Shown here: one piece after another, positions 8,287-60,289 of the stretch | How the letters are laid out: the number at the start of each line of letters is the position of its first letter | How positions within the stretch are numbered: position 1 is the first letter of the stretch | Assembly: GCF_026571515.1 (NCBI RefSeq) | Contig: NW_026856866.1 | Coordinates: 124,001-188,000 of the forward strand | From: Ruditapes philippinarum | Taxonomy: Eukaryota | Direction: 5' to 3' | Length of the DNA: 64,000 bases | Translations under genes and position numbers: made by a program | Notes under the pieces: generated by a model | The model's input: the letters and a program-made list of their open reading frames with translations, nothing else | Databases searched by the model: none | Told to the model about the DNA's origin: nothing

Positions 8287-8469
<183 letters not shown>

Positions 8470-12100: not shown

Positions 12101-13818
12101 AGCAGGTACACAAAAACATGTGTTTCATTTAATGAGAGGAATTGCGAGCCCACACAAATTAAATATCTTATTGGCGAAATCAAATGAAAATAGTATTCAT
12201 TATTTATTTCTGCGTATCTAACATAGCATAATTAACAATTTACTATTAATTATATATTTACATCACCGGGAGACAGTTTGTGCGGAAAAAAAAACTAAGC
12301 AGGGAATATTTCACAATTTCTTCATATACTAATGTATTATTGACATATTGAACACTTTGCCGTCCCTTCTCTATACAACAACAATGTTAAACACAGGACA
12401 GGTTTCGTTTCAAATAAAGTGTACGCTGCGTTCATTAAAGGTCCGACCATTAACTTGCCTTCTTTTCATGGTATGAATGAAGACTCTGGGCATCTGTCGC
12501 TTCATTTTGAATGGATGAAAAACGAGCATTTATGAAATAAGATGCAAAAGTTTAACGATCATTTATTGAGGACTGAAACTGAATAAATCTAATGAAAATG
12601 GCGTTCAATTAACGTATTCTAATTAGACAACCGAATGTTTTTATCTTGTTTTTATCATGGTCCATCTGTGACAATAACTTAATTATAGCACAATTTGAAG
12701 TGCTATATTGCAATAATATATCTACAAAGCATATGATTAATAACCTCTATAAAGGGTTAAGTAAAACAAAGATGTAATAACAATATTGAAAACATTTTTT
12801 GAAACCTCGAGAGTAAAGATTAAATAAACGCTTGGAAATAATTTTAGCTATATCATAAAACGCTTTTATAAAACATTCCGTTTCTTTAATTGATTCGGTT
12901 AAAGAAGACATTTTCTTTCGTGCATTTCCTGATTCTGAAAGAGTGAAAAGAATGTTTCGAGCCAAGCAGTCGGTGTTATTTAGTCAAATATCCGGGATAA
13001 TTCCTTATGAAAATATTATTTAGCATTTAATACAATAATTACATAGGGTCGACGATATGTCTCTACACACAGAGCTTCCATTGACTTCTACCAGTAATCC
13101 GCTAATTTCTTATTAAACTCGCCATAGTGGCCTTGTAGAACTTTTTTTTCTATACAAAGATTCCCGTTTTACAAAAATGTTTAATCTGTACAGAATTTGC
13201 TGCTTAAGACGTTTTATGTATCATTTCATGAGAATGAAAAGTTTTTATAGCATAGCAAAATAAAGATCTAGGTTGTTTATGCAAATAAACCACATTTAAG
13301 GTCTATCCGGACACTCGGTCCGTCCGGATACTGGCTCAATTAGACACACATGTATAAATGGATGTTTGACTTGAAAGATTTGGCATTGACACTACAAGGA
13401 CCTTATATTTTTATTGTAAAGATGTCCCGGAAAACAGCCGGTACTTGGCCACTCAACATACGGAAAAGATTTTAAGTGTATTTTAAGTTATACATGTTGA
13501 AGGGTCCTTATTCTAAAGAGTCTTGGTAAATAATAAACCCGGACTACAGCTCATAAATACGTCTATCTGACAACTGAATTAGAATATAAGTAGTTTTCTT
13601 ATCTGTTTGCTTAAAACTATGAATTATGCCTGGAACCTTTCAAAATTGGACAAGAAAATGTCTAATTCTTGTACAGACGCGCCATTTTGATTATTTTACG
13701 TCACTGACCCCCTTATCTTGTTACAAGCACGTTGATTGGTCATAATTGGATTGTCAGAAATGAAATCTTGACGTGTTAATTAAAAAGTGTTGAAATGAAA
13801 ATGAGAAAAGTTAATTAC

Positions 13819-14319
13819 CTGCACTGGACCGGGATTTTTGTCTTGGTCTTGATGAAAGTGTGGGTGACGTTTTGAACATGCCCGGATGGTGAAATCCTAG
13901 CCCGCCTCCGTATTCCGCTCCTACGTATGACGGATACGTTGGCACGGGATGAGCTGTGTGGCCAGTGCTTGGTGGCATGAAAGGTGAGAGACCCGCAGCC
14001 TCTGGGTCTTCTTGTTTTGAAACAGATTTTTCTGAACTATAGTCTGAATTTGCGGCAGAATTAGACGTAGTGTTGTTATTATTATTGTTATTATTTACAT
14101 TGTCCGGTGTACCGTCCTTGGGCGGTGTTGGCGGGAAATTAAATGAGCTTGATGTAGCTATGCTGGTGGCAGGGTGCACTGACAGGGGTGTTGTACCACT
14201 GTGACTGAGAGATTTGTTGTTGTATAGGCCCCATCCGGCGTGTGCTGGCATTTTACTGTCAATGGCTGCCCAGGGATTGAGTGGGTGAGGGAAATTAGGC
14301 CTATATATGTTGCTGCTAC
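13819..14319 (-). CDS. GATA123: GATA1/2/3 transcription factor, second coding exon (501 nt)
   Basis: Lies inside ORF 13811..14356. Acceptor ttttgttttAG at 14321-14320, donor CAG|GTAATT at 13818. Contains GATA2/3-type motifs YRPNFPHPLNPW, FPPTPPKD, HPVPTYPSYV and ends RPRQKSRSSA before the finger. Phase 1-1 keeps frame with both neighbours. Confidence 0.96.
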
Positions 14320-17084
14320 CTAAAACAAAAAATAAAATATATCTGTAAGTTATCAATCAATATATTTCATGTTGTAAATGATAAATATAAAAAAACACAT
14401 TATTCAGGTTTTGACATAGAAATGAATTAATAAAAGTGCTAATTAGCTATTCAAATCCTAATAGTTATCTCGTGATGGTAGCCATGAAATATGCAAATAT
14501 TTGTTATATTTTTCTCTAAACATAAAATATTGATAACATAAAACACGAAAGAATGTCTGATATTGGCAGTTATTTTAATTTTACTTTTGTCTAATGTAAT
14601 TGTTTTGCATTTACATTCTACACATCAACTGTGAACGCTTAACAAATGTAATTGTATTTATTTATTTATTTGTCTTTAGGGTGTAATTTGTATTTGCACT
14701 TTTCAATTCGGAAAATTTTATTTTACGAATTTTCCCTTAGGTATTTTCGGTTAAATTGTGTTATTTATTTTCTAGTGTTTATAAAACCGACTCTCAATTT
14801 TGTGTTAGATGTGTGCAACAATTCAGTCATATTAATCATATGTATTTGCACTAAGAAACACGGTGTGAAAAACTTTTTGTGCTGTTATTTTTTGGTTTGT
14901 GTACTAGACATAAGAAAAAGAAATTTAATACACCGTTTCGTGTTACTGCAATTTTTCGTTAATATCTATCGGCGTTGGCGTACAATGACGTTTCTCTGGG
15001 GGTCTAAATAAAAATAGACTAGATAATATTTTAGTTAGAATGATACTTATTTAGCCATTTAGATATATATTAATATGGTAGGACTGGTCATTCATTTGTA
15101 TTTGATAAATGTTTTCTTTAAAAACCACTTTTATTTTGTCATTCTGGTTATTGTTAATTTTAAAAAGGTAGCAACAAGATTGGTGTAAATGTGTTTTTAT
15201 ATATGTACTTCACTATAATAATGCTTTTATCTAAAAATACAGAAATTTTTCACTTGCAGGAACTTTAAACTGTTAAAATGTTAAAATTTTATTATTACAA
15301 CTACAAGGTTTTATAACACGCAATAAAATTACATTACCCCTATGCATAAATAGAAATCTTCATATCTGTGTTTCAAATTTATTTTATCATGTTTAAAATT
15401 TGTGAACCTTTTCCTACACACAATATAACATTTTCACAAAATATATACGGGGTCTATCAAGTGAGTCTGTAAGGTTCTGTTAAGCTTAATATAACACATC
15501 CAGATAAATGTTCCAGAAAATTATTTCAAATTACCCGTGCAGTGTACTTTGCTCCAAATTGAGGCAAATTGCGGTTCTATTGGATTAATTGGGGTCTAAT
15601 TGGAACCAGGGGGTTTAGTATGTATCTGTTTTAAAAAGGCGGTATGTTTAGGAATAGAAAATTGTTGGAAAAGTTTCACTTTCTGTGTAAAAGACTAGAG
15701 AAAAAAATGTGTTTTAAGTGTATAATAGACATAAGAGCGCCTGTATACATAACTTTTAACTTCATAGTGCCTTCAAAATTCTCATGCGAATGTTAAACGG
15801 TCCAAGGTGCGGAAGATTGGTAATTTACACGGCGTGAAACCGTTGAGAAAAACCACTTGCTCATATGAATGTAAATATTTTCAAACATGAGATGTTTCTG
15901 CGCAATGATTTTAAATAAATAAAGTAAAATAGTTGTTCCTAAATAACCACCACAGTAAAACTGCTGTGACGTTTTCTAAACATTTTCATTTATTTAGAAA
16001 TCATATAAACTGTGCAATTATTGAAAAGAAAGTAATTTTAAAATCGTAATTTACAAATTAATGTTTTCACGGTGACACCGTACGGGAAAAAAAGAGAGGA
16101 AGAAAAAATAGGAATATTTATTCAAATAATAGGCGAGCTGTGCCGACCAATTTCTGCATTAAATCATGCGTAACGACAGAAAAATAATTTACAACGTTCT
16201 GACAGTGAGTGTAATTTTCTACGGCATGTGTTGTAAAAAAGAAGACATTACTTTAACAACTCTTCAGAAATAGAGAGAGTTTTACTGCATGGAAACAATG
16301 CAGATCCGTAGCTAATTCAACTGTAAAGTCATACAATAAGCACAACTGTGGTTTTCTTCAATTCGAAACACATTTCAGGCTAGTTTATTTAGAACGTACT
16401 CTTACTTATATTAATTCTTTTGAAAGTATTTGCTTCAAATTACCAACCAAAAAAAATCTTACACAAAATGATTCATAACAATGGAAGTAAAAAAAATGAC
16501 TAACAAATATAAATGAACCTCTGATTAAAGCTAAAAAAATATTGCTGACCTATATGGCAAAATTGTATAATAGCATAACTCTTATTTTCTTGCTCTTTAA
16601 GCCCTACTTTGTAACATTGTTCTCTATCGTTAGTTTAAACACACATATTATTTAAGATATTAAGTGGTTTCGAACAATTACGTGCTGCATTCAAGTCTAA
16701 ATGAGCGACATGCAGGCTCCCTAAAACCACTTAGTGTTCATGAGCTCTAAATATTGTCATCGGTTTACATAAGTGGCAAACTAGAAAAAAAATGTCATAG
16801 TATAATAATGAAATTTAATAAGCCTATCGTTTAAGTGGGTTAAAGCAGTCAACAATCTTGCCGAGGCTTCCGTTTTTAACTTCAAATACTTCTGTATAGA
16901 CAACAATGTCTTTGATTTAGATAAAGTGTATTGAGGTTTAAAAGAATCCCAAATTGAAGCTGTCATCATGAATTTAATATGATCAAGGCCGTAAAAAAAT
17001 TGTACATTATTATTATTTAATGGTTAAACTAATTTTAGAGATTCATTTCATATCATACTGGTTGACATGTAAGAAGGATTTGTT

Positions 17085-17175: not shown

Positions 17176-17419
17176 TCAAGGAATCATCGGCCTCATCAAT
17201 GGATACAAGTTCATAAAATTTATACAAAATTTCAAATTATTTTTTCACTCTAAATGTATTAATAACGATACAATAACAATAAGGGAAAATAAAAAAACCA
17301 GTAACAGATTTCTAAATTAAGTTATTTTGAAAAATATTAGTTTTATGTGAACGTTAAAATCATCTTAGAATAAAACTGATATATAAAACTAAAATATAAA
17401 GTGAGCACGTGAAACTTAC

Positions 17420-17645
17420 TGTGGGTGGCTCCGTAGCCTGCCATAGCTCGTGCAGAGTGTTGTGAGTAATAATTTGCGGCACGGTTCATGTGTGAGCTGT
17501 TACCATCAAAACCATGTTGTAATGAGAACATTTCACTAATGTCTTCTGAGGGAAAGCCGACTGGAGGCTCGTACCCGTTACTCATCCTGTTTGCCTCTGG
17601 TCTCAACCAGGCTGCGTGCTGTTGTTCTGCTGTTGCTATATCCAT
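17420..17645 (-). CDS. GATA123: GATA1/2/3 transcription factor, first coding exon (226 coding nt)
   Basis: ATG at 17645 in good context (gctATGG). Encodes MDIATAEQQHAAWL...PSEDISEMFS...NYYSQHSARA, resembling the GATA2/3 N-terminus. Donor GTAAGT at 17419-17414, phase 1; A+GT forms a Ser codon with the next exon. Confidence 0.93.
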
Positions 17646-17909
17646 AGCGTTTATTTTTTTTTATTACACACTAAATCTCAAATAAATTATTTTTTGAGAT
17701 ATATAAGTAATATGTTTTAAATATTGATCGGCATGTATGTCAACATTGAAGATAAAACTAGTGTTTAATATAGATATATAAATATATTAACACCATTCGT
17801 TTTGCACAAATTATTTCTGTGTTTTGTAAAATCCAACAATTTTTTGTCCTTTTTGCGTTCAGTCTGTTTTGCTGTTTGTTTTGATAATCCAGGAGATTCG
17901 GGTATATTT
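17646..17909 (-). other. Probable 5' UTR portion of the ATG-containing GATA exon
   Basis: Strong acceptor ttttctattttacAG at 17911-17910, 264 nt upstream of the ATG. Inferred without transcript data. Confidence 0.6.
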
Positions 17910-31150: not shown

Positions 31151-32147
31151 CGTAAGATAAAACAAACGATAACATTCTTTTAGTGAATTTTCTATGACAT
31201 TAAACCTCGGAAACGTATTTCCAGAGTGATATACAATATAATCATTTAAAGTACCTATGAGATAAATTAATTGAAATATCTGATTGGTAGTTTTGACCTC
31301 AAATTTGAGGGACTTATAGCGTCACGGATACACGTTGTCACAATTGTTTACAGAAGATTTATGTTTAAGTTATGAAAATAGTCAGAACGATTTGAATGAC
31401 GTCAATACTTCAAGTTAACCTTAAGTTTAAACCTAAAGATATCTTTAAAAAGACAAAGCCTTGTTTGCACAATATGAATCACTTTCACGAGTTTGCCTCT
31501 TTTTCCTTTGACCGAAACAATGCTTTTAATGCATGATTTGAAACTCAAATACAATGTATGTGTAAACTAAATACAACCAATTTTTCTTATAAAAGTAAAA
31601 GGAATGTAGCACAAAGTTAATTCCAGTATTCTTTAAAAAATGTACACAAGACGTGTCCGAGACCATCCACATTTTCCTTTTTTATGTCCAAGAGCAACAA
31701 GTCATGTCATAGCCGAAACAAAACTATAGATAGGACGAAACTAGGGTATGTAAGCTTAGAAAACTTTGATTTAAAAATAACTGGCAATATAGTATATAAC
31801 AGCGTGTAGTTTATGTAAGCTATGTATAATTTAAAACATGGTTTTCAATTTCTATTACATTAACTATGTTACATGTATATGATGACTACTAGTATATTCT
31901 AAAAACATTCTTATCAACATATGCACTGCTTAATAAGGCATTTTAATGTAATAATTATTTCGGCATCAAAACATTCTATGTTTGTGGCATGAAGTAAACA
32001 AAACTATACTAAGTTTTTCTGTGCAAAAATTAATAAAAAATTTTTTTGAAAAAATCATATGAAATAATGTCACAACAATAGATACCATAACATTTAGGCA
32101 ATAACTAATATAAACCAAGAGCAAGACTTCAAGAATAGCTTTGTAAT

Positions 32148-32242
32148 AGAAAGAGCATCGAAACACGAGGCTATCTGATTTGTACGAGGGGGCGTAGCCC
32201 CCGAGTATAAATTAGATTGCCGAGTGTTTTGATGTTCTTTCT
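32148..32242 (+). repeat. 95-nt imperfect inverted repeat (46-bp arms, GTA loop)
   Basis: Ungapped arms: 37/46 Watson-Crick, 4 G-T, two tandem GA/GA, 1 T-T; apex GGGGGC-GTA-GCCCCC. Confidence 0.92.
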
Positions 32243-34599
32243 CTTTTGTATCATAGTCAAACATAAAAACACGTTCCCTGATACCAAAATATGAAACCCC
32301 ACAAAAAAGTAACCAATGACCGAGCATGTTTCCATCGCGTATCCTTTCTCTGTCGTAATAATATGTAAACCCCGGACAAAATGAACCAATCAATGGGCAT
32401 GATCTGGAGTGCGGGTAACTGATACCTGCACTCCAGTTACCGCACTGTGCATGTATATGTATACGATTTAACTCTGACACATTTTCAACAGAAAGGTCCC
32501 CAAACTATGATACAATGATATATATATCATATTATATTTGACGCAGAACAAAATGGAATAGACCAAAAAAAATTCAACCAACAGTGTCTACTTATGTCGT
32601 TTTTCTTGCCTTCACTTTAGACTTAAAATTCTTAAATGTTTAAATGCACACATATTTTGATATTTTCTATGTATTAAATAAACGCTGCTGCATTTGTACA
32701 TAAACTATGAAAACAGAGATTAAAAAGTAAGAGCGGCTTTTAACGAATGTATACCCCAACATAACCAAGCAACACAGGACCACCGACAAGGAGCACAGTA
32801 GGACACTTAACAAAACAAACAACACAAGTACAAGGGCAAAGGACGGACGGACATTCACCACAAACAACTGAATAAGCTGTTGAAAACGATGTTAATATAC
32901 ACCAAACTTTCAAAGTAAAGTTTCAAGTAAAGCCCCTTAAACTTCAGTAAAAACTACCCTCCTCCCTTTAATTGATCTCAATTAGTTAAATGTGTTTCTG
33001 GAATTCCAGCAGCTGTTGCATGTGCCGCTTCGTACCACCCAGACCTCGCCCGCCACTATAAAAAGTCGCCTTATAGTCTATTATTTACTGACTACCAAAT
33101 CACATTCGTTAATCCATACATACATTAAGGACTGCAGGTAATTGGTAATTAATTAATAAATATTCCCAATTTATGTAACACTGCTTCAATTACTTTTAAG
33201 TGATCCGTATCATTAAATGAGTGAAAATAAACTTCAATGAAAAGACAGTTGGGACAAAATTAAGAATCATCAAACACAAGAATAGAACGCCTACGAAGTG
33301 AAAACACAACATTTATTTCGAAGATTAGAAATGAAAACAGCTTCGGACATATTTAAATCTGTCTTATCTGGGAAGACATGTATATGTACTAGAAGTATGC
33401 ACGGGTCAAGTTAATGACATGAATATATTTCTAACTGTATAATTGCAAAAGGAACAATAGATGGAATGGAAGTCTAATACAGTTCTAATGATTTATGGAT
33501 ATTTCCATGTGGAAATTGAAATATTTATAAAAACATGACAAAAGGCGATTCCTTTACCGTTATGCTGCTAAGAGAACTCAGAGTAGCCTCTGAGAACACA
33601 TTGGTAACAGGACAGACACCGAGTACCTTAGCGTCTTGCCAAGTACCAACATTGTTTAAAAGCCATTTTTTGCATCCTTTTATTTTCTTATTACCTTCCA
33701 TGGAGAAGAAGGGGAAAATCAGACGACAGGTTGGAGGCGCCAATTTTCACAGCATGCAAAGAACCAACTGAAACAATACACCAAACATGTGGAACAAGCT
33801 TCAGAACAGATAATTTACAAATGGCATAACAAAGTTACCGAATTTATAAAAGTTTTATACTTTCTGGCAGTAGAAACAATTATTGGAGCAGTTACAATAT
33901 GGGTGGTTTTGCATTAATTTAACGAGTATATTAATTTGTGTAAGTACATCATATATGTTTTACTGTCACAATGTTCAATGCACCAACATTTTAACATTTC
34001 AGAAAAAAACTGGAAAGAAGTTTTCAGTAATGTAAAAGTTATATGTACAAATGTGCATGGATTTAAGTTTTTACATGAAAAGGCTAAACTTTTGGATGAA
34101 CTTTTGATAATAGAGTTCACGAAATCAATTCCCTATCGAATATATATGTCTAGATAATATTTTTTTATTAAACATTGTTCTGTAACACAATCCAGATGTC
34201 GCCAAGGATATGGATTTGTTTACGAAGTTTATGGCCGTCTATTTTGTAACAAAATATGCCCGAAGAAAAGCAACATAATAAACGGGAAGGGTGCCTGTGA
34301 TGTCTATATACACTTTATGAAAAAACATATCTTCCATTGATTCTATTGACATAATTTTATACTACATGTATACAAACAAAAATATAGAACAAAAGTCATC
34401 ATACGAGTCTTTAAATTATCAGTTTTAAGCAGTCTTTGATAATAATGAAGGTATCGAAATTTGTCCAGTAATATACGATTAAAAGTAATTAATTTGATAT
34501 ATTTGAAGAATTCTTAAAACTAAAGAAAATATGGCCTGATTATGTAAAATATGATAAACAAGATCAACAAGGAAAGGCGGCGTTCATGTAAGTCATGGA

Positions 34600-34835: not shown

Positions 34836-36961
34836 TTATTAGCGAGCTCGAAGAGCTGGCTTGAAGGGCCTGCTCGCAAAGCGAGCTTTACAGTAACGCG
34901 AATACCTGCTAGATAGTGATGGTTTTGAAAACTTTCGTCGGAAGTACTGAATTGACACATCGCAACTTTTCGAATTACAAGAAAACCGGTAACAGCCGAG
35001 GAATCTGATTCAAAACGGATGCGTTGACTGGTGTCCTGCGCACTTTTATAGGAATCATAATAAGACAGGGAACCAGAATAAACGGAATCAGTGAATAAAT
35101 AACCGAATGACAGTTTTAAAACGGAAAATGTAAAAGAAAATAAAAAAAAAAAAAAAAACGATTATTTTATACTATTTCAAGGTAAAAGTAAATCGAGCTC
35201 GTTTTGAGGCTTTGCCTTTTTCATATTAAGCATAACATGTATTTTTAAGTTTGCGGTCGGCGTTGATAGTCAAAACAAAACTTTGTTTATACTCTGATGA
35301 CAAATCAAATAACTTTAAAATATTTAAAGCAATCAAAGACTCCGATCAAATTGTTTGATTATTTCAGTTAATTGGACTCAGGTCCCAATGCAATAATTAA
35401 AGACGGAATTCACTGAGCTGCATGCTCTCGATGGGATATCACCTGGTTTGTTGAACCAAACCATAAATAAAACATTAATTTAAAACATCCGTACACATAA
35501 CATATAAATATGGTCTAATTAATTAACTGAATTGGATACAAACATTCATGGCGATTACCTATTGCAATGGACTTGGCTTTGAACACATATTGTTAAATAA
35601 ATGTGACATAGTAACATTTGAATGGTAAAGTGTCGTTGGCATTTCTACTTGTTATTTATATTTCCCGATCGTATTACCGAATAATGTTCTATGTACGAAG
35701 TTTAGTTTACGCATTCGTTTATTAATGCACTTTTAAAATGCTGACAAACTAGAGAAAGATGGTGTTCAATTAACATTTGTCATTTTTTCTGTATTATATC
35801 TAAACAAGAGAGTGCCCAAATTTGAGCAAACAAAAACAACACCTTTTCGACTAACCCTCGGTAGAATTTCATTGTACATTATGTTTTCCGAGGTCGGAAC
35901 AAAATGCAATGATTCGCCCTATATCTTTACCCTTTCTTCTGTCTTTAAATAAATGTTAAAATGCAAGTCTTTGAGCATGGTAGTTTATAACGGATTTTCG
36001 GGATCATTGCAAGCAACACATATTATTCTTAATGTTGGCTGTGACTGTTTTATTTACTCAGCCCAAACTTATCTACCATTTTCTACTGATTACTTTGCTA
36101 CATTCCTATAAACAAATCATATTTCTTTCTAGACTTTTTTCTAGAAAACACGGTTAATTAGATGACGTATCCTTACGTGTCTTGAAAAAAAATGGAGTAC
36201 AACTTGGCGTTTGCATTCGTGACATTGATAGTAATTTTGAAATATATTAGACAATAACATTTCTTTTTTCCTATCTGAAACGTGCTTTAACATAATCTCA
36301 CATCAGTCACAGCTCTCCTATTCAAATAACAGCCGTTAAAATCTTAAAATGATATTTGAAATATATTTTGCTTCTTCAGAGTTTTATTCTTTGCAATCAT
36401 TTAGTCACATATATTCATAAGAAAAATATAATGACATTTTAAATTTCATTAAGCCGCATAAAAGATTATACTAAGCAATCTTTTTTGTGTAAATGATTAT
36501 ATTCTTCATAATGAAATTAAATCGTAAAATGGCCGAATGTTTGTTTGTTAGTCTTTACTTTTGTTGAGCTTAATTTGCACCTAATACTACCTGAGGGCTT
36601 ATTTTCATTATTAACAAATATTTTCCAGTATATCACATTAAACAAAATGAAAGCAATTAAATTATAATATGCCACCATTCTTAATATTCCTGATTAAATA
36701 ATCCAATTGTCATATATTTGTTATGACACAAAGATAACAAGTTTAATTTCAGTAAGAAATATCAAAAAGAACATATTGAAATGGAATTATACATACTCAT
36801 TTTTTCTTCTTTACTTTGTAGAAACTAGCATTTACAAGTAATTGGATCTCGTGAAAGCAATTAATAAATTTGTAGAAATCTAGGTATCAAAGAAAGACAA
36901 TATAACAATGACATTGAAATAATAAATTGAAAATAATGAAAATAGAGCTTTGAAAAGAAAT

Positions 36962-37185
36962 GAGCCGTGTCATGACAAAACCAACATAATGGGTTTGCGA
37001 CCAGCATGGATCCAGACTCTACTTTACTTTATCAGGATCCATGCTGTTCGCTATCAGTTTCTCTACTTGTAATAGAGTTGGTAAGCGAACAGCATGGATC
37101 CTGATCAGACTGCGTGGATGCGCAGGCTGGTCTGGATCCATGCTGGTCGCAAACACACTATGATGGTTTTGTCGTGACACGGCTT
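36962..37185. mobile_element. Palindromic Sola-like MITE, copy 1 (224 bp, internal replacement in left arm)
   Basis: GAGCCGTGTCATGAC...GTCGTGACACGGCTT termini, flanked on both sides by AAAT (4-bp TSD). Confidence 0.9.
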
Positions 37186-38116
37186 AAATCATAGGTTGTG
37201 AGTTTAGAACCTGCGACAGAGATGACATGACGGAGGGAAGTCAAAAACGATTCGACAAAATGCACCTGACATCAGAATTGGCAATGTACAAGTATATTGA
37301 AATTAGGATAACAATTGTAACATACAGCAAAATAATAAATTCCAAAACAGAGTAAAATTAAAGGAGATTGTTCTTTCCGAACAATTGTTTCTAAGAATTT
37401 AAATTCATTCTGGAAAAAATTGAATTAACTTATATCTGAATCACCAAGTCTTTTATTGTACATTTCCCTGTCCCGATACAACAAAACTGAATTTCAAGTT
37501 CAGTTATTCAGACGGCTTTGATTTGAAGTAACACTAATATTTTTAAAGCAGTTTACATCTAGCTTTTTTTTAATATACATATTTGATACATGGCTTGTGA
37601 AGAATATGGTGCACTGAACAAAGTTCAAAGTATCTGGAGAATTCGGGCTTTACACAAAAGATGCGATGCCCAAAAGAAAAGCCAATTAGATGATCAAATA
37701 TTACAACATAATAAATACCCAAATGAAAAATGTATGCCCTGCAAATATTATAGCTGACCATGCAATTTTACTCCGTGAGTTTTGACGACGCATGTCTCGG
37801 AAATGCATGGACAAACAATGCATCGAAGTAATTGTTACAAATTATTTCTTACGTACTTATATGAAGATTTGTCAACGAAGAAGTTCCGTATGACAAACCA
37901 AGAACAAAACATTTACGAAACATATTGATAAGTTAATTCTACATTTTAATATATAAATTCAGGAATTTCAAACAGCCGAACAGTGAATGGACATTGACGC
38001 TTTGGTGGCTAAAGCCAAAGTCTTCAATAATAAAACTGACAGTGTTTTAAAAGACCTCTGAAACTGAAACATTGTAACATCACTCACGAATTGCAGAGAT
38101 TATTACATTTATAATT

Positions 38117-38351
38117 GAGCCGCGTCATGACAAAACCAACGTAATGGGTTTGCGACCAGCATGGATCCAGACCAGCCTGAGCATCCGCGCAGTCTGATCA
38201 GGATCCATGCTGTTCGCTTACCAACTCTATTACAAGTAGAGAAACTGATAGCGAACATCATAGATCCTGATCAGACTGCGCGGATGCGCAGACTGGGATG
38301 GATCCATGCTGGTCTCAAACCCATTATGTTGGTTTTGTTGTGACGCGGCTC
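38117..38351. mobile_element. Palindromic Sola-like MITE, copy 2 (235 bp)
   Basis: GAGCC...GGCTC termini, about 100-bp inverted arms, flanks AATT/ATTT. Confidence 0.92.
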
Positions 38352-39062
38352 ATTTATATTATACAGTCCTAAAAATGAGACAGGAATTATGACGATACTA
38401 ACTGACTTTAATCATATAATTTATGCGTAATTACTCGTACAATGCCATTTCAAAATATTATTTTCATATTACACAATGTATATTATAACAAAGGGGAGAA
38501 ATTAACATAAAATGACAAATTCTTAAAAATAAACCTTAGCTTACAGGGATGCTTTGAATTGATATTGAGACTGAAACATACAAAAAACAAAAACAAATTA
38601 TTTTATAGTCTAATCTTTACAAATAAAATTTATTTTCCTGTATAATATGAACACATTTCATTATACTAAATTATCAATTGATTACTTTCTTGATAAATTA
38701 TTCATCATGTACCGCTAAAGTAAATTCATGAATACATAATATATCATGCATATGAGTACTGTTCCAGAGCAGCCACAAGTAAGATAGGGGAAATTCAATT
38801 ATAAGTACAAATTAAATTATAGTTTTTCTTTCATTTGGATATTCTCATATAACAGATCGCTGTTTCTACGAACTTCGCAGATTTTTTTTCATAACAATTT
38901 CAAGGCATTGCTCTTATCCCATAGTATTTTCAAGAATTGCAGTAAGCTAAATGTCTAAACAAATTCAACAAATCTTTTTACAGGTTCACAAAAATATAAC
39001 ATAGTACAATGACGCGACTAATAAATAGCAACATTGAAATAATGTAAAACAGTAAACTTTGA

Positions 39063-39320: not shown

Positions 39321-40008
39321 TATATGACATTTAAAGGGTAGTTACTGGAAAGCGGTGTCACCCTACACATGTTTTGATTTATATTACTGATTCGTTATTA
39401 TTGTAACTGAAATGAAATAATAATTGTAAAAGATTTAGTAATAGATGTAAGAATAATTGTGACATTTAGTTCTAGTTGCTTTTGAGCTTACTTTTTATTT
39501 TAAAAAGATTCATTTTTGTTATCACTTTTCGTGTCATATATTTAAATTATATTTTGATATTAAGTAATTATTTCATCCAATAGGACTTTCTATCTGGCGA
39601 TGACTTGAATATTTTTGTCACCTTGGTGGGCTTTATCATTAAAGTTTGCAATTATGATTATGTCAAACTCACCCTGGTATATTTAACTATGGTAGCAATT
39701 TTCAAACTATTTGCTTTACAAAAGTCGATTAAATTTGGATCATCAAAGGGTCTTACTCCAACTTGTGGACGTCTTAACTGAGCGATAAGATCTTAGTTTG
39801 ATGAAATATTTGACAAAATAAATAAATAATATTAATTTGATAGCGTTTCATATTTTTCTACTGAATTATTAGATCTATCATTCACTTATTATATATAATG
39901 TGATATAAATATACGAATTTTAAAAGTAATGTTATATATGTCAATGAACAAATTAGTTAGGCGTATAACACAAGACGTTGCTGAAGATTCTTAAAAGAAA
40001 ATATAATT

Positions 40009-40149
40009 GAGCCGCGTCATGACAAAACCAACATAATGGGTTTGCGACCAGCATGGATCCAGAACAGCCTGCGCATCCGCGCAGTCTGATCAGGATCCAT
40101 GCTGTTCGCTTACAAACCCTATAACAAGTGGAGAAACTTATAGCGAACA
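40009..40149. mobile_element. Palindromic Sola-like MITE, copy 3 (truncated: left arm plus spacer)
   Basis: AATT|GAGCCGCGTCATGAC start; similarity stops about 9 nt into the right arm. Confidence 0.9.
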
Positions 40150-40912
40150 CATCAATGAGTCAATTGAACTAAGACCATGCATTCAAAAACTGCAAGAAAC
40201 CATAAAAAAATATATTTTATAAACTTTCTACGAAAAGTGGGTAAAAACCTTGTTAATGTGTTAATGCATATCTAAACAGAAAGAAATCTTTGTTTAATCG
40301 TTAAAATATTTTTGTTTATAACAGAAGACTAAATTTTTCCCCCTTACGTCTTAAGATTTAAATTTTTATGTTAATTTAGGTCAATATAGATATGTACATT
40401 GTTTTGTACCATACACGACTATTTATACTGCAATATTGATGATGTTTATAGCATAATAATAATTTCATGTATACTATTATTAATGTATATATATTTCAGG
40501 CGACTTGTTCCATTGGGCTTGGTGTTATATTAAATTATTTATTTTCGTTATTTGTAAATTTCCATGGACATGTCACTTTAATAAAATATTTACTTACTTA
40601 TACTTAAAATAAAAGCAATAAAGGAATGAAATATAATATCGGTACAACTATCTTTTTTACTTAGATTTATTTTAAATGAAATATATAAATTCCTGGTTGC
40701 TTCAATTATTTTAGATTTCAGAGTGTTAAGAATTAAGAATTGAAGTTTTTTAAAATATCAAGGAGCGAAAGATTTATTTTATTATAAGTTAAATTGATTG
40801 TAAATTAAGATGTGCCCAGAAATGCCTGTTATAAAATCATGTAAATATATTTATTTTGCGAAATCATATCAGTTGTTGTTTTTTCTGAAGTATATAAAAT
40901 GATTGTACGTAC

Positions 40913-46800: not shown

Positions 46801-48979
46801 AAATAGATTTACTAGACATCAAATATACTTTTATCGTTAATTACACCGTTTTCAAATGATGTAAAAACGACAGATTGTCAATTTACAATGTCTAATTCTT
46901 TTGATAGTAAGGTCTCTAGATGATGTCGTTGGTAAATTATGAAAAAGAAGCTTCGGTAAAGCTGGGCTTATCAAGATGGGGATGTAGGAGATATTGTGAT
47001 AGATTTCTCCCGAAAGCTCCAGAGAGGTTTTAATGCCATTAAAAGAAAAAATATTGATAACAAGTTAAATTGAACGCATGCGCTGTAAGAGGAAATTGCT
47101 TTTTAATGTTGGAAAAGTTTTAATCTGTCATTAAGATGAGGTTAGTAATAAAATGAACGAATGAAAACAAATCAATAGACATAACAAATATACGAGCCGG
47201 GCAAATGTAGTTTAAATGGCCTAAAACGAAAAAAAAATCGGTGATGAGATTTTGAAAAATAATCATAAACTGCTGAAATGAAACAAAAAAAAAATCTATC
47301 AAAAGTGATATCACTCGTGCAGTGATTCAAATTTATATTGAAAATGTAAATATAAATGATAAAATTATAAGATCTTGATATTTGATGAAAATCTTAAAAT
47401 CGTTTTCGTAAAATATTTTCTTATTAGATCTATTTTTCTTTTTCTTTTTTTTTACATTTTCGCGGATTTTTTAAAGTTTCAAGTGTATATTTTCTCTTTA
47501 GATGTTGCAACTTTTTACCATCGTCATATCAGTAATGTAAATCTTTACTCACTCTAATATAACATTAAGTAAAAAAAATAAGTAATGAATTTATTTGAAG
47601 TTGATTTCTTTTTTCATATATGCATTCTTAATATTTCACTAATTAAACCACATAGCTTTCTGCATATCTTAAAAACAACAACAACACATACACAAAAATC
47701 AGTTTTATATCCGGTCATGAATATTACAAATCCATTAAAATAAGAAGTTCATTCATGTTTAAAACACTTAACGGTACATTATGCCTCAGAATCAGCATTT
47801 GTATTCTTCTTTAGAAAAGCCAATTATGAGTTAAATATAGTTAAAATAATTGTTTTAAACATGTTAGATACTTATCACCTGAAAAAAGTAACGCTGAACC
47901 TGAAACAAGTTGCCATTGCAGCAAATATTGAAAGTAGTATTATGACTTCTATACAAAATACTAAACCACTATAACTGTGTTAATTGTTAAAAGGCGAAGC
48001 ATAAGGTGGTTCATGAAAATGGCAATTGAGTTACATTTTGGAAATTCTAACGTGGCATTCAAAATAAAAAGCTTTTGAGAAATAAAAATAAAAATTATTT
48101 CTGATGCATAATGGGCCTTTAAATATATTTACTGCACTGAGATTCCGGCAATGTTAAGGAATGTAAATCATTCTATTAATGCAATCTTTAATAGTATTTT
48201 AAATCAAAATGTTTAAATCTTCTCAAAGAAATATATGACAACTTTTATTTTCCAATATGTGTGACGAAACTTCACTTTTTATATTCCATTAAATTTTTCT
48301 CTTTTTCTCTCATGAGGTTATTAGGTAGCGCTGTACGTTTCGAACAAATTCACACAGGAAAATATGGCATAAGTTTACCCCCATTCGGAGAAATATCCCA
48401 GGAATCTTCTAACCAATATAAAAAGCATTCTGTATAAACCAAATGTATGCTAATCTATAATGCATCAAAATAATATCATAAGGACCTATGACACTGAAAT
48501 ATGCCACAAATGTAATAATGTGCGCGGTTCCTTACGTATACAATTAGGAACTTATGATTATTATGTTTTATGCCAGCAGATACGTTTTGTCTTCCATCAT
48601 AAAGCCATGCCGCATTTATTCATTGGCAATAACGTGAATAGAACAACCTGTTGGAGTGGGGTTATTCTCACAAGAGCGGTTCTTGTTTCTGTTTTCATTC
48701 ATTATAGGATTTTAAAAAAGAAATAGTTTGGGACAATGGCGCCAAATCTTGCGAGAATTCATCTGAAGCGCGAGAAAACCTCAATATAGGCTCTAATTAA
48801 ATACTGCAATCTTTTGTGACTGTAATTACACGTTAAAAGAAAAGAAAGAACAAGAAAAAGATTAAAAAATGTGTAAAAAGAATCATTGTTGTTAATTAAT
48901 TACTTTTTGCCAATAAAGATAGAGGTATTGTGCAGTGAAGTCCGAGATCTAAGAAGTCTTTACCGCACCTTGTTAAAAT

Positions 48980-49214
48980 GAGCCGTGTCATGACAAAACC
49001 AACATAATGGGTTTGCGACCAGCATGGATCCAGACCAGCCTGCGCATCCGCGCAGTCTGATCAGGATCCATGCTGTTCGCTTACAGACCCTATAACAAGT
49101 AGAGAAACTGATAGCGAACAGCATGGATCCTGATCAGACTGCGCGGATGCGCAGGCTGGTCTGGATCCATGCTGGTCGCAAACCCATTATGTTGGTTTTG
49201 TCGTGACACGGCTC
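48980..49214. mobile_element. Palindromic Sola-like MITE, copy 4 (235 bp, best preserved)
   Basis: Near-perfect arms of about 100 bp, 5'-GAG...CTC-3' termini, perfect AAAT TSD (48976-48979, 49215-49218). GAG/CTC ends with 4-bp AT-rich TSDs are properties of Sola DNA transposons. Confidence 0.95.
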
Positions 49215-49571
49215 AAATGTATTTTTGATAAGAATTTTATCCAGACAAGTTATTCCGTTTGATTTTTAATCTTACTAGAGGATTGTTCTACAAATACTTC
49301 AAAGAGAGGATTTTTTATATCTTTAATTTATTTCTTTAATTTGACTCGTTCAGTGCTTCTTTTTCTGATAAGTTTAAGTTAATATTGCATTATATTTCCA
49401 AGTTATTATTATTACTGTTAATATGTGAATGTATTATAATTACGTACATTAAATTAGTTTTATTGTTTGAAAGAATAGAATAGAACGGGGAAATAAAAAA
49501 AACTACAAAAATATATTTATAAAATTGAAATTATATGAATATTTGTGGGTGATTAACTGTACATTTTTACC

Positions 49572-56750: not shown

Positions 56751-59361
56751 ATCACTGTTTAAATGATATTCGTTCTCTATGGCAAACTGTGTGGTGCATA
56801 TAATATGAGCCAAGGTAGCATTACGCTATGATTCTCAAACCTGATTTGTTCAGGGCATGTTCTAGAAATATTATATGCAAAAGTATTTCCTTTAGAGTAC
56901 CAGGTCTTTGCACAATTAAAATATTATCTGATCAGCATACGACGGATATACTGTTTCCTGAAAAATTCCTCCGACTAGTCGTCGTGCAAAATTACACAAA
57001 AAGAACATTACGTTACGAGAAAATCTCTTTAATTTTCTGCTAATGTTCCCGTTTCAAAGTGTTCCCTGGTCATGCTGCCTTCCCAGTCTTATGACTTTAG
57101 ATAAGATTTGTTTTACTGATTTAGAATTTTATATCCCAATTAGAACTACTGATAGACATCGCGATTATCTTTATAGATTAAACCACATTTCAACTTGTAC
57201 ATAAGATTTTAATATTTGTCCGCCCGATAATACACTGAAAACAGATTAGAGCTTTTCGTCTTGTATATTTTTTCAAATCATTACCGCTTCTATGAAAGAA
57301 AATCGGTTAAAATACAAGCGTTGGGTTTATAAAGTACTCTTCATTTTTTGAGGTAAGTAAAGTCTTCTTTGAAAAGCCATGCGTACTATTCTTTGAAAGG
57401 AAAAAAGTCGTTCTGCATTTAATTGATATTTCAAATATGTTTCTATCTGTATGTAATCTTTTGAATGTTTGCCTTTGAAAATTATTCCGTGTTTTTCTTT
57501 TTACAAATGTTTCTTTTTAGTTTCGGTACATGAAACATATATTTTTATATGTCTTTAAATAAAATATAAAAACGCGAATAACAGGTTCTGAAAGGCAGAG
57601 TGCGGGCGTCGGCAATGCACTTTGAATTTGTTTTAGCACATCAATTTAGAGCGGGCGAGCTATTAATCAAAGTTAGAGATCGGAGCGTGTTTTCTACTGA
57701 TAAGGAACCATTTTCATATCAAATCTTATCAAAATTCCATCCTAGATGAGAGATTGACAACATCCATTTACAGCTTTAGCATGTTAATAAAAAACTTCGG
57801 CACAACTGTTCACTATGTTTTTTGAGGCAGAATTAAATGTACAAAACGCATTCTTTGAGGTAATTTTTCATGTTCCTTGAGTTGCCTCGCAGTTGGACAA
57901 GCCCGGCTTATCAGCTTGGAGATATCGCGGTATGATAAGTTTTGATATAAATCCATATCTTATCTTAGTTAATGTTTAAGTTTTAATGGGTGACGGGCTG
58001 ATTACGAAAGTTAAATTACGTACTCCAACGGTGTTCGGAACTGCTTTGTATCCGCGCATGACAAGGTCGGACGGAATCGTGCGAAAAATGATAAATAGTT
58101 GAAAATTCTATAAATCACGGCACTGGATAGTAAGATAAGTGTGCACAAAAACAAATAGGTGATCGAACCCAGATCGCGAAAAGTTTTCAAAATATAATTG
58201 ATGAGACATGTTACAATTTTTTTTCTCACTTAGTCTATCTCATTATAAATCAATTTCAATCACACAGACCTGATCATTATCCCCTGTAGGTCGACCTTAA
58301 GTTTATTAAAAATCGTAAAACATTTTGGCATAAGAAATAAAAACAAAGTGATATATAGTATAGTAAATTTTATATAGATACAAATGCATTCTTCGTTTGA
58401 TAGAGCACAATGCAGAACATTAATGTTAACGTACGATGAAAAAAAAAGAAACACGGCGGAAGCTTATTTTCTGTTTTTCTGGTACCGTTGAATGGGAAAG
58501 CTTGCTAGACGGTGCAGAACAATGTTTTGTCCAATTAATGTCAGTCAAGACGGGAGCCAGTGACTGGAACTCGTGATTTTGATCAAAATCAAATCGAGGC
58601 TGATGATGGACGCATCACACACCGTAAAGTATAAAAACATATTGTTAAACAATGCTAAAAACGTATGTGTTGACTTCCGTATCAATGCATTTACTATGTA
58701 TAGCCTTGTTTATTCAACAAAATGCAAACAGCTGGCATGGACTTCATTTTTCTTTAAAATGATATTATATACAAATATTAAATTAACGATGAGCGCGTAA
58801 AACCTATGTTAGAGAGGTTCCACTTGTTTTCTTGTAGATCCTGTAAGCACATTACATAAAATTGTGTCCTGAAATACATCGTGATATCTTAATTTATAAA
58901 TAAAGATATGTGCGCACATATACCATGTGATTAAACTACTTGGGCGGGAGACAAGAAAATGTATAAAATGATGTAATTGTTATCTAGAAGGTGTGTTTGA
59001 CAACAGCTTGCACATTTTATATAACCAGCGTATCTCAAATGAAGCCCGCCCACTGAATAATATCAGAGAGAATAAATTTCGTTTAATACCGTACCCTTTT
59101 TAAAATGATGTTTGAAAGTTATAATTGTCAAATTAAAAAAAAATAAGCTTTTGAACATTTACAAAAACTGGCCATTTCAGTTGAATTTTTTATTATAGAA
59201 TCTCCCCTTAAACATTACTTTTTAATCATATATCGAAAAAAAAATCTTATGTTAAACAATAAGCTCCATAAGTTAAAAACAAATAAAGAAATGTGTAATT
59301 AAAAGTGTGACCATAACTACATGTATATCTTGTTGAAACAATGACAACTATACCACAATAA

Positions 59362-59519: not shown

Positions 59520-60289
59520 CATATGTTTTGCCATCGTTAATTATATGATATAATTATAACGAAAAATGAAGTCCATACCAGCTGTTTGCAATCGGTTGAA
59601 TAATAAATGCTTAACACAGTAAATACATAGAAACTGAAGTCAACACAAGTATTTACATAGTAAATATATCAAATATTCGTCAAATCAAACACAGGTACCA
59701 TAATATTTGTAATATTATGATGACTAAAATATGTATGTGATATGAATCAAATTGCTGTCGGCCTGTTTGAAAACAAAGCTTTCTTTATCAACGCCTTTAA
59801 TCTGCCCGCTGGAACAACATTTGCATACCATACCGTGACTGTCATTTTATTTCATTCTGAATCGTTCAACATTAACTTGTATATAATTTCCCGAGGAGTG
59901 TGCACTTAACTATGTACGCCCGAAGCCTCATGTACCGGTCCTACATCAACGGAATAGCTACCCGGTGTCTTGTTCCGAATCACCCGAAATAACTTTATAA
60001 TAAAAGGAGCATAAAATATTAATAATAATAATAACAACAAAGATACAAGTACAAATATCGGTTTGATAAAATCTTCAAACCATCACCCGCTAGACCAAAA
60101 AAGAGTATTAGTCTAAAAGGCCCAGCATATGCTGTAATTCCTTTACAACGGTACTCTGTTTTAGTATAAATATCTGAATTCAACTACCTCTAAAAACCTA
60201 AATACATACAGGCTTAAAACATGTAACATAGACATTATTTTTATATTCATTTCTGAAGCATTTTCATATTAAGGATGGTTAAAAGATAA

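Follow-up and report, generated by a model that had tools for sequence, protein, structure and literature searches.

A strand-asymmetric terminal hairpin as the probable recombination site of a putative CryptonA-type element in Ruditapes philippinarum

What function could be served by a long hairpin that folds better from one DNA strand than from the other is the question raised by a 95-nt structure at 32148-32242 (plus strand) in the window, that is, the whole stretch of 64,000 nucleotides of Ruditapes philippinarum DNA that was analysed. A sequence-only reading had described ungapped 46-bp arms around a GTA loop, with nine non-Watson-Crick positions confined to a few classes, and all of these details were confirmed: the arms correspond to 32148-32193 and 32197-32242, the loop to 32194-32196, and the nine positions to four G-T pairs (32155/32235, 32160/32230, 32177/32213 and 32182/32208), two tandem GA/AG mismatches (32167-8/32222-3 and 32186-7/32203-4), both in a CGAG/CGAG context, and a single T-T mismatch (32172/32218). 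The strand asymmetry proposed in the same reading was also recovered, the DNA fold reaching -31.3 kcal/mol (z -11.5) on the plus strand and -23.6 kcal/mol (z -8.4) on the minus strand, and none of 200 shuffles matched the DNA stability of the hairpin. Its apex is a GCGNAGC-type mini-hairpin (32192-32198, plus strand) with a GTA triloop and a C-G closing pair, a pattern that occurs once in the window and in none of 100 shuffles. The stability attributed to these motifs is in accordance with published results, which report that GCGNAGC hairpins are strongly stabilised as DNA (PMC13037366) and that tandem GA stacking is strongly stabilising in DNA (PMC8163305, PMC13037366).

The hairpin had been suggested to be the cis-signal of a non-autonomous element, and such an element was found. 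In the thirty best-matching loci the alignment extends over 32143-32515 and the flanks are unrelated, which delimits an element of 373 bp whose hairpin-first strand is the plus strand; both end motifs were seen in 26 of these loci. Both ends are likewise present in 38 of 40 further copies, a set taken from the first 44 matches listed by omitting one earlier locus, an inverted pair and one tandem junction, and in which the median length is 384 bp. When the 33-nt left end was searched in the 1.41-Gb genome, 1,805 exact matches were obtained (control, 0), which sets the copy number at 1,805 at least. The right terminus (32504-32515, plus strand) ends in AA, its last four bases are ACAA in 35 of 38 copies, and its position is placed exactly by head-to-tail junctions between copies. 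The inverted repeat formed by the ends is asymmetric, and true terminal inverted repeats are absent. On the left, the element is preceded here by the host bases TTT (32140-32142, plus strand), and the family prefers (T/C)-A-(A/T), as judged from the plus strand of the 40 copies (T in 31 and C in nine at -3, A in 36 at -2, and A in 24, T in 15 and C in one at -1); on the right, no clear preference is displayed at +1 and +2. Direct repeats of at least 4 nt flank only two of 38 copies, no more than AA is common to both ends, the left flank ends in a base other than A in 16 of 40 copies, and two empty sites, a paralogue in L019 and tandem units in L025, have the length of the joined flanks (L030 was uninformative). 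The element inserts without target duplication.

Between its ends, the element contains an internal duplication of about 42 nt (32288-32401, plus strand; 32 of 42 columns match), in which both AACCAAT boxes reported earlier at 32311 and 32384 are found. Their CCAAT cores (32313 and 32386) are probably promoter remnants, since the coding partner described below carries one CCAAT ahead of its gene. A second, smaller hairpin lies near the right end (32404-32436, plus strand) and is represented by a perfect 23-24-bp stem in the partners L143, L144 and L146. Close pairs of copies in inverted orientation were observed at G000 C75:128958-129036 and in L026. As for the surroundings, exons of a GATA-type transcription factor gene, which we take to belong to the GATA1/2/3 subfamily, lie on the minus strand at 8433 (a C-x2-C-x17-C-x2-C zinc finger), 13814-14356 and about 17350-17660; the element is found 5' of them, at a distance of about 14.5 kb from the most upstream frame observed. 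The window also holds four copies of a palindromic element of about 240 bp with inverted arms of about 108 bp (36953-37187, 38100-38360, 39998-40252 and 48971-49231), probably a MITE, which is inserted in several other loci as well and whose mismatches display no tandem GA bias, together with a pair of 106-bp inverted repeats (58666-58771 and 59542-59647; 83% complementary, 770 bp apart) that are possible DNA transposon ends.

Comparison among copies allowed the features of the family to be separated from those of the window's copy. The CGTAG apex is present in 37 of 46 copies of a set biased to the window's copy and in 30 of the 40 copies chosen independently. The four plus-strand G-T pairs reported for the hairpin exist in this copy, but only three of them hold family-wide: the fourth, 32177/32213, is G-T in 29 of the 46 copies of the biased set, and G-C in 33 and G-T in none of the 40 chosen without regard to this position, and is a subfamily variant. 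Compensated double changes were observed in the 46 copies at 32158/32232 (C-G in 23, T-A in 21) and at 32171/32219 (C-G in 37, T-A in five), although they could stem from arm-to-arm copying. In many copies the apex has been lost by internal deletion (L083:1138-1231, L101:2770-2881, L140, L144, L191 and L202), as expected of a fold-prone sequence.

The identity of the system became clear from longer copies, a search for which had been recommended in the sequence-only reading, with a tyrosine recombinase or HUH protein in mind. The genome contains 149 DUF3504 matches, and long hairpins of the same signature were found at 12 of the 30 loci examined. A search with the recombinase of one hairpin-bearing locus retrieved L143, L144, L146 and L155 (four of 30 loci), tyrosine recombinase elements of 2,619-2,754 bp that share the hairpin start and the right terminus; the identity of the window's element with L143 is 85% in the first 178 columns and reaches 96% in the last 57 nt. 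The 2,754-bp L143 has two open exons, one of 344 aa with DUF3504 (E 6.8e-12) and a QRICH1 domain, also found in a profile search with the partner, and one of 189 aa matching Phage_integrase (E 5.3e-9); it keeps its intron, and no other long frame, including any for reverse transcriptase or RNase H, is present in it. Among the catalytic residues of this group R, H, H and Y are present and K occupies the position of the second R (H-S-G-K vs the canonical H-x-x-R), a substitution invariant in 20 homologues, while the hairpin-bearing families L083 and L086 have the canonical motif. A PDB sequence search with the second exon of L143 gave weak hits only, and in the alignment with XerA (E 0.056) H, H and Y are in place and K stands for the second R; for the related protein of L128, a structural model (pLDDT 68) matches Cre recombinase (E 4.7e-6). 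Homologues are labelled as many molluscs and one sponge, and one recombinase of this genome is 99% identical to a protein bearing the label Ruditapes philippinarum. In read contigs of four runs on L143, none of the 15 joints listed out of 27 spans the intron, two runs cover the intron in a DNA-like manner, cover in the other two is patchy and low, and loose ends with mixed flanks are consistent with both termini. No hairpin-type end was found in the DNA examined of five DUF3504 groups (L081/L082, L090/L091, L109/L110, L125/L126 and L141/L156). Conversely, hairpins with GA tandems but no adjacent recombinase gene were observed at L114:7199-7308, L117:7962-8059, L078, L122:1538-1697 and L178:3739-3886, and are probably other non-autonomous Crypton families.

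We conclude that the element is almost certainly a Crypton-type derivative. The DUF3504 domain of its partner, on which the subgroup rests, would assign it to CryptonA (PMC3212892, PMC13465315) and, because that partner shares both ends, argues against a Helentron. This distinction is needed because the descriptions of Helentron/Helitron2 non-autonomous elements (HINE, moved by a Rep-helicase) fit an asymmetric terminal inverted repeat, a terminal hairpin and the lack of target duplication (PMC4067079, PMC5148889), and the genome carries 94 Helitron_like_N matches. Nevertheless, we consider a HINE extremely improbable, since the longer copies that share these ends have a tyrosine recombinase as their sole protein, and the base beside the hairpin end is variable (the A, T and C counted above at -1), which departs from insertion at TT. 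In HINE and DINE-1 elements, which also share an internal duplication with the clam element, the stem is 5-10 bp and the partner RepHel (PMC4067079, PMC5148889, PMC11417382), whereas here the stem has at least 46 bp and the partner is a tyrosine recombinase. A Helentron partner was sought in the 10 kb downstream of 20 of the 94 Rep matches and rejected, the only hit being of 19 nt (E 0.69). Hairpins of the element's type lie in two of these 20 stretches, at distances of 1.6 kb and 7.9 kb beyond the longest frame, and are read as separate insertions because one resembles the L086 family. Many Helitron-like Rep/helicase frames were observed in L061-L080, and their open stretches of 1,400-2,600 aa suggest recent Helitron-like activity.

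In order to understand whether the mismatches mark one strand in general, they were summed over nine families, one copy each and leaving out L143, with the strand oriented by the layout of the ends (in L112, in which the far end is not reached, by the start motif). On the hairpin-first strand, 16 tandem GA and no TC, and 20 G-T and two A-C mismatches were counted (binomial p-values 3e-5 and 1e-4, both of which overstate independence, as the families share ancestry and are represented by one copy each). As had been argued from the window's copy alone, random decay does not account for this pattern: variant cells at Watson-Crick pairs in the 46 copies are symmetric (18 G-T vs 22 A-C), so genomic decay is not the source of the bias. 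Thus the mismatch classes are kept across copies and families, but the GNA loop, expected to be conserved with them, is common rather than universal (GNA in five of nine families, TCT in two, ATA in one and a degenerate 4-nt loop in one). The G-T excess could, however, reflect deamination of single strands instead of selection.

G-U pairs and tandem GA mismatches also suit RNA. Accordingly, with an RNA fold that is strong and strand-biased (-64.8 vs -43.9), the hairpin might be a pre-miRNA or an mRNA element selected at the RNA level, a reading to which we give very little credence. The favoured strand follows the layout of the ends and is the sense strand of the gene in five families and the antisense strand in four, which argues against an mRNA structure; the partner retains its intron and has no reverse transcriptase frame; an Rfam search of the hairpin with E up to 1 returned no match; and these mini-hairpins are far less stable in RNA form (PMC13037366).

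The most informative part of the element is one that the sequence-only reading did not describe, namely a 12-nt segment directly behind the hairpin (32246-32257, plus strand) that is the exact complement of the right terminus, 32504-32515, and is predicted to act as a splint. A corresponding arrangement recurs in seven recombinase families (eight elements): immediately after the hairpin comes a complement of the terminal 10-19 nt, which end in AA in every case, even though the sequences of the pairing ends differ among the families. When the ends are joined they fold as one stem in seven of seven families, with the junction at the stem edge just after AA, and a bulge is made by the first two bases in L143 and L129. 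The segment behind the hairpin is complementary to the 5' start as well as to the 3' end, and in a joined circle the two complementary segments are separated by about 100-190 nt. Upstream hairpins were seen at three of 16 recombinase loci in metagenome contigs, many of which are short. One contig, L185, has a terminal overlap of 127 nt and assembles as a 1,220-bp cycle. The ends are joined in it and start with the same eight bases, and a 12-nt complement, a GTA loop and three GA tandems are present; the contig could represent either a circle or a tandem array.

Two further explanations retain the same element and recombinase and differ in what the hairpin does. According to the first, which we regard as rather unlikely, a double-stranded circle is excised, as in the published Crypton model (PMC13565253, PMC3212892), and the palindrome either forms an extruded cruciform or serves only to bind protein, its mismatch bias easing the extrusion of one arm. 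A cruciform agrees with the nearest-neighbour energies, which are near-equal on both strands in four families (-107.3/-107.9, -54.5/-53.1, -72.6/-71.4 and -102.9/-102.6), but it requires both strands to fold, and yet in nine of nine families a single strand carries the GA of the tandem mismatches. Standard double-stranded sites have a spacing of 6-8 bp (PMC3212892), and no inverted pair so spaced exists across the junction in the joined ends of the seven families. According to the second, less probable still, the main role of the hairpin is to prime second-strand synthesis or to mark its origin on a single-stranded copy, the complement only splints the joining of the ends, and the recombinase acts later on double-stranded DNA. 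GNA mini-hairpins do occur at the single-strand priming sites of phage G4 and ssiA (PMC13037366), and the pairing of the segment behind the hairpin with both termini is compatible with such a role. The constant position of the junction, after AA at the edge of the paired arms in all seven families, is instead what is expected of a cleavage site, and the target preference resembles the element's own end.

The 38 exact head-to-tail junctions that were found provided additional information on insertion. Adjacent units in nine tandem pairs have identities of 0.84, 0.89, 0.89, 0.91, 0.92, 0.96, 0.98, 0.98 and 0.98, the median for dispersed pairs being 0.92. The interpretation of the arrays as pure rolling-circle concatemers was rejected, because five of the nine adjacent pairs look like separate insertions; the arrays do not, therefore, prove rolling-circle copying. 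That these five pairs are no more alike than dispersed copies suggests insertion at the end of an existing copy. In the arrays of L163, L165 and L170, two subfamilies occur in the same order within different flanks, which may mean that dimers move as units; heterodimers made up of different subfamilies are compatible with the insertion of a circle of either kind, double-stranded ones included.

Taking these results together, we hypothesize that the hairpin, folded on one DNA strand, is probably the site cut and joined by the DUF3504 tyrosine recombinase of the longer members, and we lean, somewhat less firmly, towards the more general proposal that animal CryptonA are single-strand recombination elements, in which a terminal hairpin and an internal splint allow one strand to be joined and inserted and replication completes the copy. 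The hairpin-first strand would become single-stranded, probably at the replication fork, and the 12-nt segment behind the hairpin would pair with the right end and keep both ends together. The recombinase would then join the ends into a single-stranded circle, in which one long stem would have the junction at its edge, and exchange that one strand, its partner being either a short YAW target or the terminus of a copy already in place, GA tandems and the GNA loop stabilising or marking the correct strand. The junction would be resolved by host replication, which would make movement replicative and would explain the thousands of copies. A folded single strand and replicative resolution have a precedent in integron attC sites (PMC2727003, PMC3458562), and bacteria offer another one-strand case (PMC9345347).

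Several known systems share part of this design. Published CryptonA elements have a single DUF3504-type tyrosine recombinase gene, autonomous copies of 2-4 kb, abundant short non-autonomous derivatives and no target duplication (PMC3212892), but no terminal repeats were found in animal Cryptons according to the sections available of Kojima and Jurka 2011 (PMC3212892), and terminal repeats are given as n.d. for all eight CryptonA entries (PMC3212892, supplement 1); the clam element, in contrast, has defined ends, with a terminal hairpin, an asymmetric inverted repeat of 10-19 nt and a YAW target. It lacks the direct repeats of 4-6 bp found at both ends of fungal and oomycete Cryptons. In DIRS elements, an internal complementary region has been proposed to splint the joining of the ends. 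Those elements resemble the clam element in having a tyrosine recombinase and an internal segment complementary to both ends (PMC13465315), whereas the latter has no reverse transcriptase or long terminal repeats and keeps an intron. The integron attC/IntI system combines a tyrosine recombinase, an imperfect palindrome with strand-specific unpaired features and a site completed by the joining of ends (PMC2727003, PMC3458562), and the CTX phage at dif a tyrosine recombinase, an imperfect palindrome that differs between strands and a site formed in the same way (PMC9345347). Folding from one strand with strand-specific unpaired features was also found, computationally, for the clam hairpin, in which, unlike in attC, GA tandems, G-T pairs and a bulge of 2 nt mark the strand; moreover, the clam system is eukaryotic, encodes its own recombinase and uses many short targets instead of attI or dif. 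In a bacterial system with four core genes and a specific attB, a tyrosine recombinase makes a circle from one strand while the donor stays filled, but no long terminal hairpin appears in the available part of its description. Likewise, the terms hairpin, palindrom and single-stranded are absent from the available text of the Glomhopper paper. In the literature searched, as far as its texts were available and with Repbase, Dfam and subscription journals outside the scope, no description of Crypton terminal hairpins, of this end design or of single-strand transposition was found. Database entries for Crypton-related Eulor repeats reportedly note palindromes. The human Eulor5/6 repeats have been linked to Crypton termini, with hairpins unmentioned in the part of that paper available (PMC5753468).

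A 2026 review describes Crypton transposition, in the sections available, as experimentally undemonstrated and assumes a double-stranded circle (PMC13565253). The locus described here has precisely placed ends and a target preference, and it offers a predicted active strand, a short substrate that can be synthesised and an open two-exon partner gene, with which the question of mechanism becomes a direct bench test. The end design can also serve as a rule by which non-autonomous Cryptons that resemble Helentrons, as which such elements could be misfiled on structure alone, are found and classified. If the proposed mechanism is true, a mechanism similar to that of integrons would operate in animal genomes, the ancestral activity of the ZMYM, QRICH1 and KCTD1 domains would be revealed, and a short-target recombinase system from animals would be added to those known.
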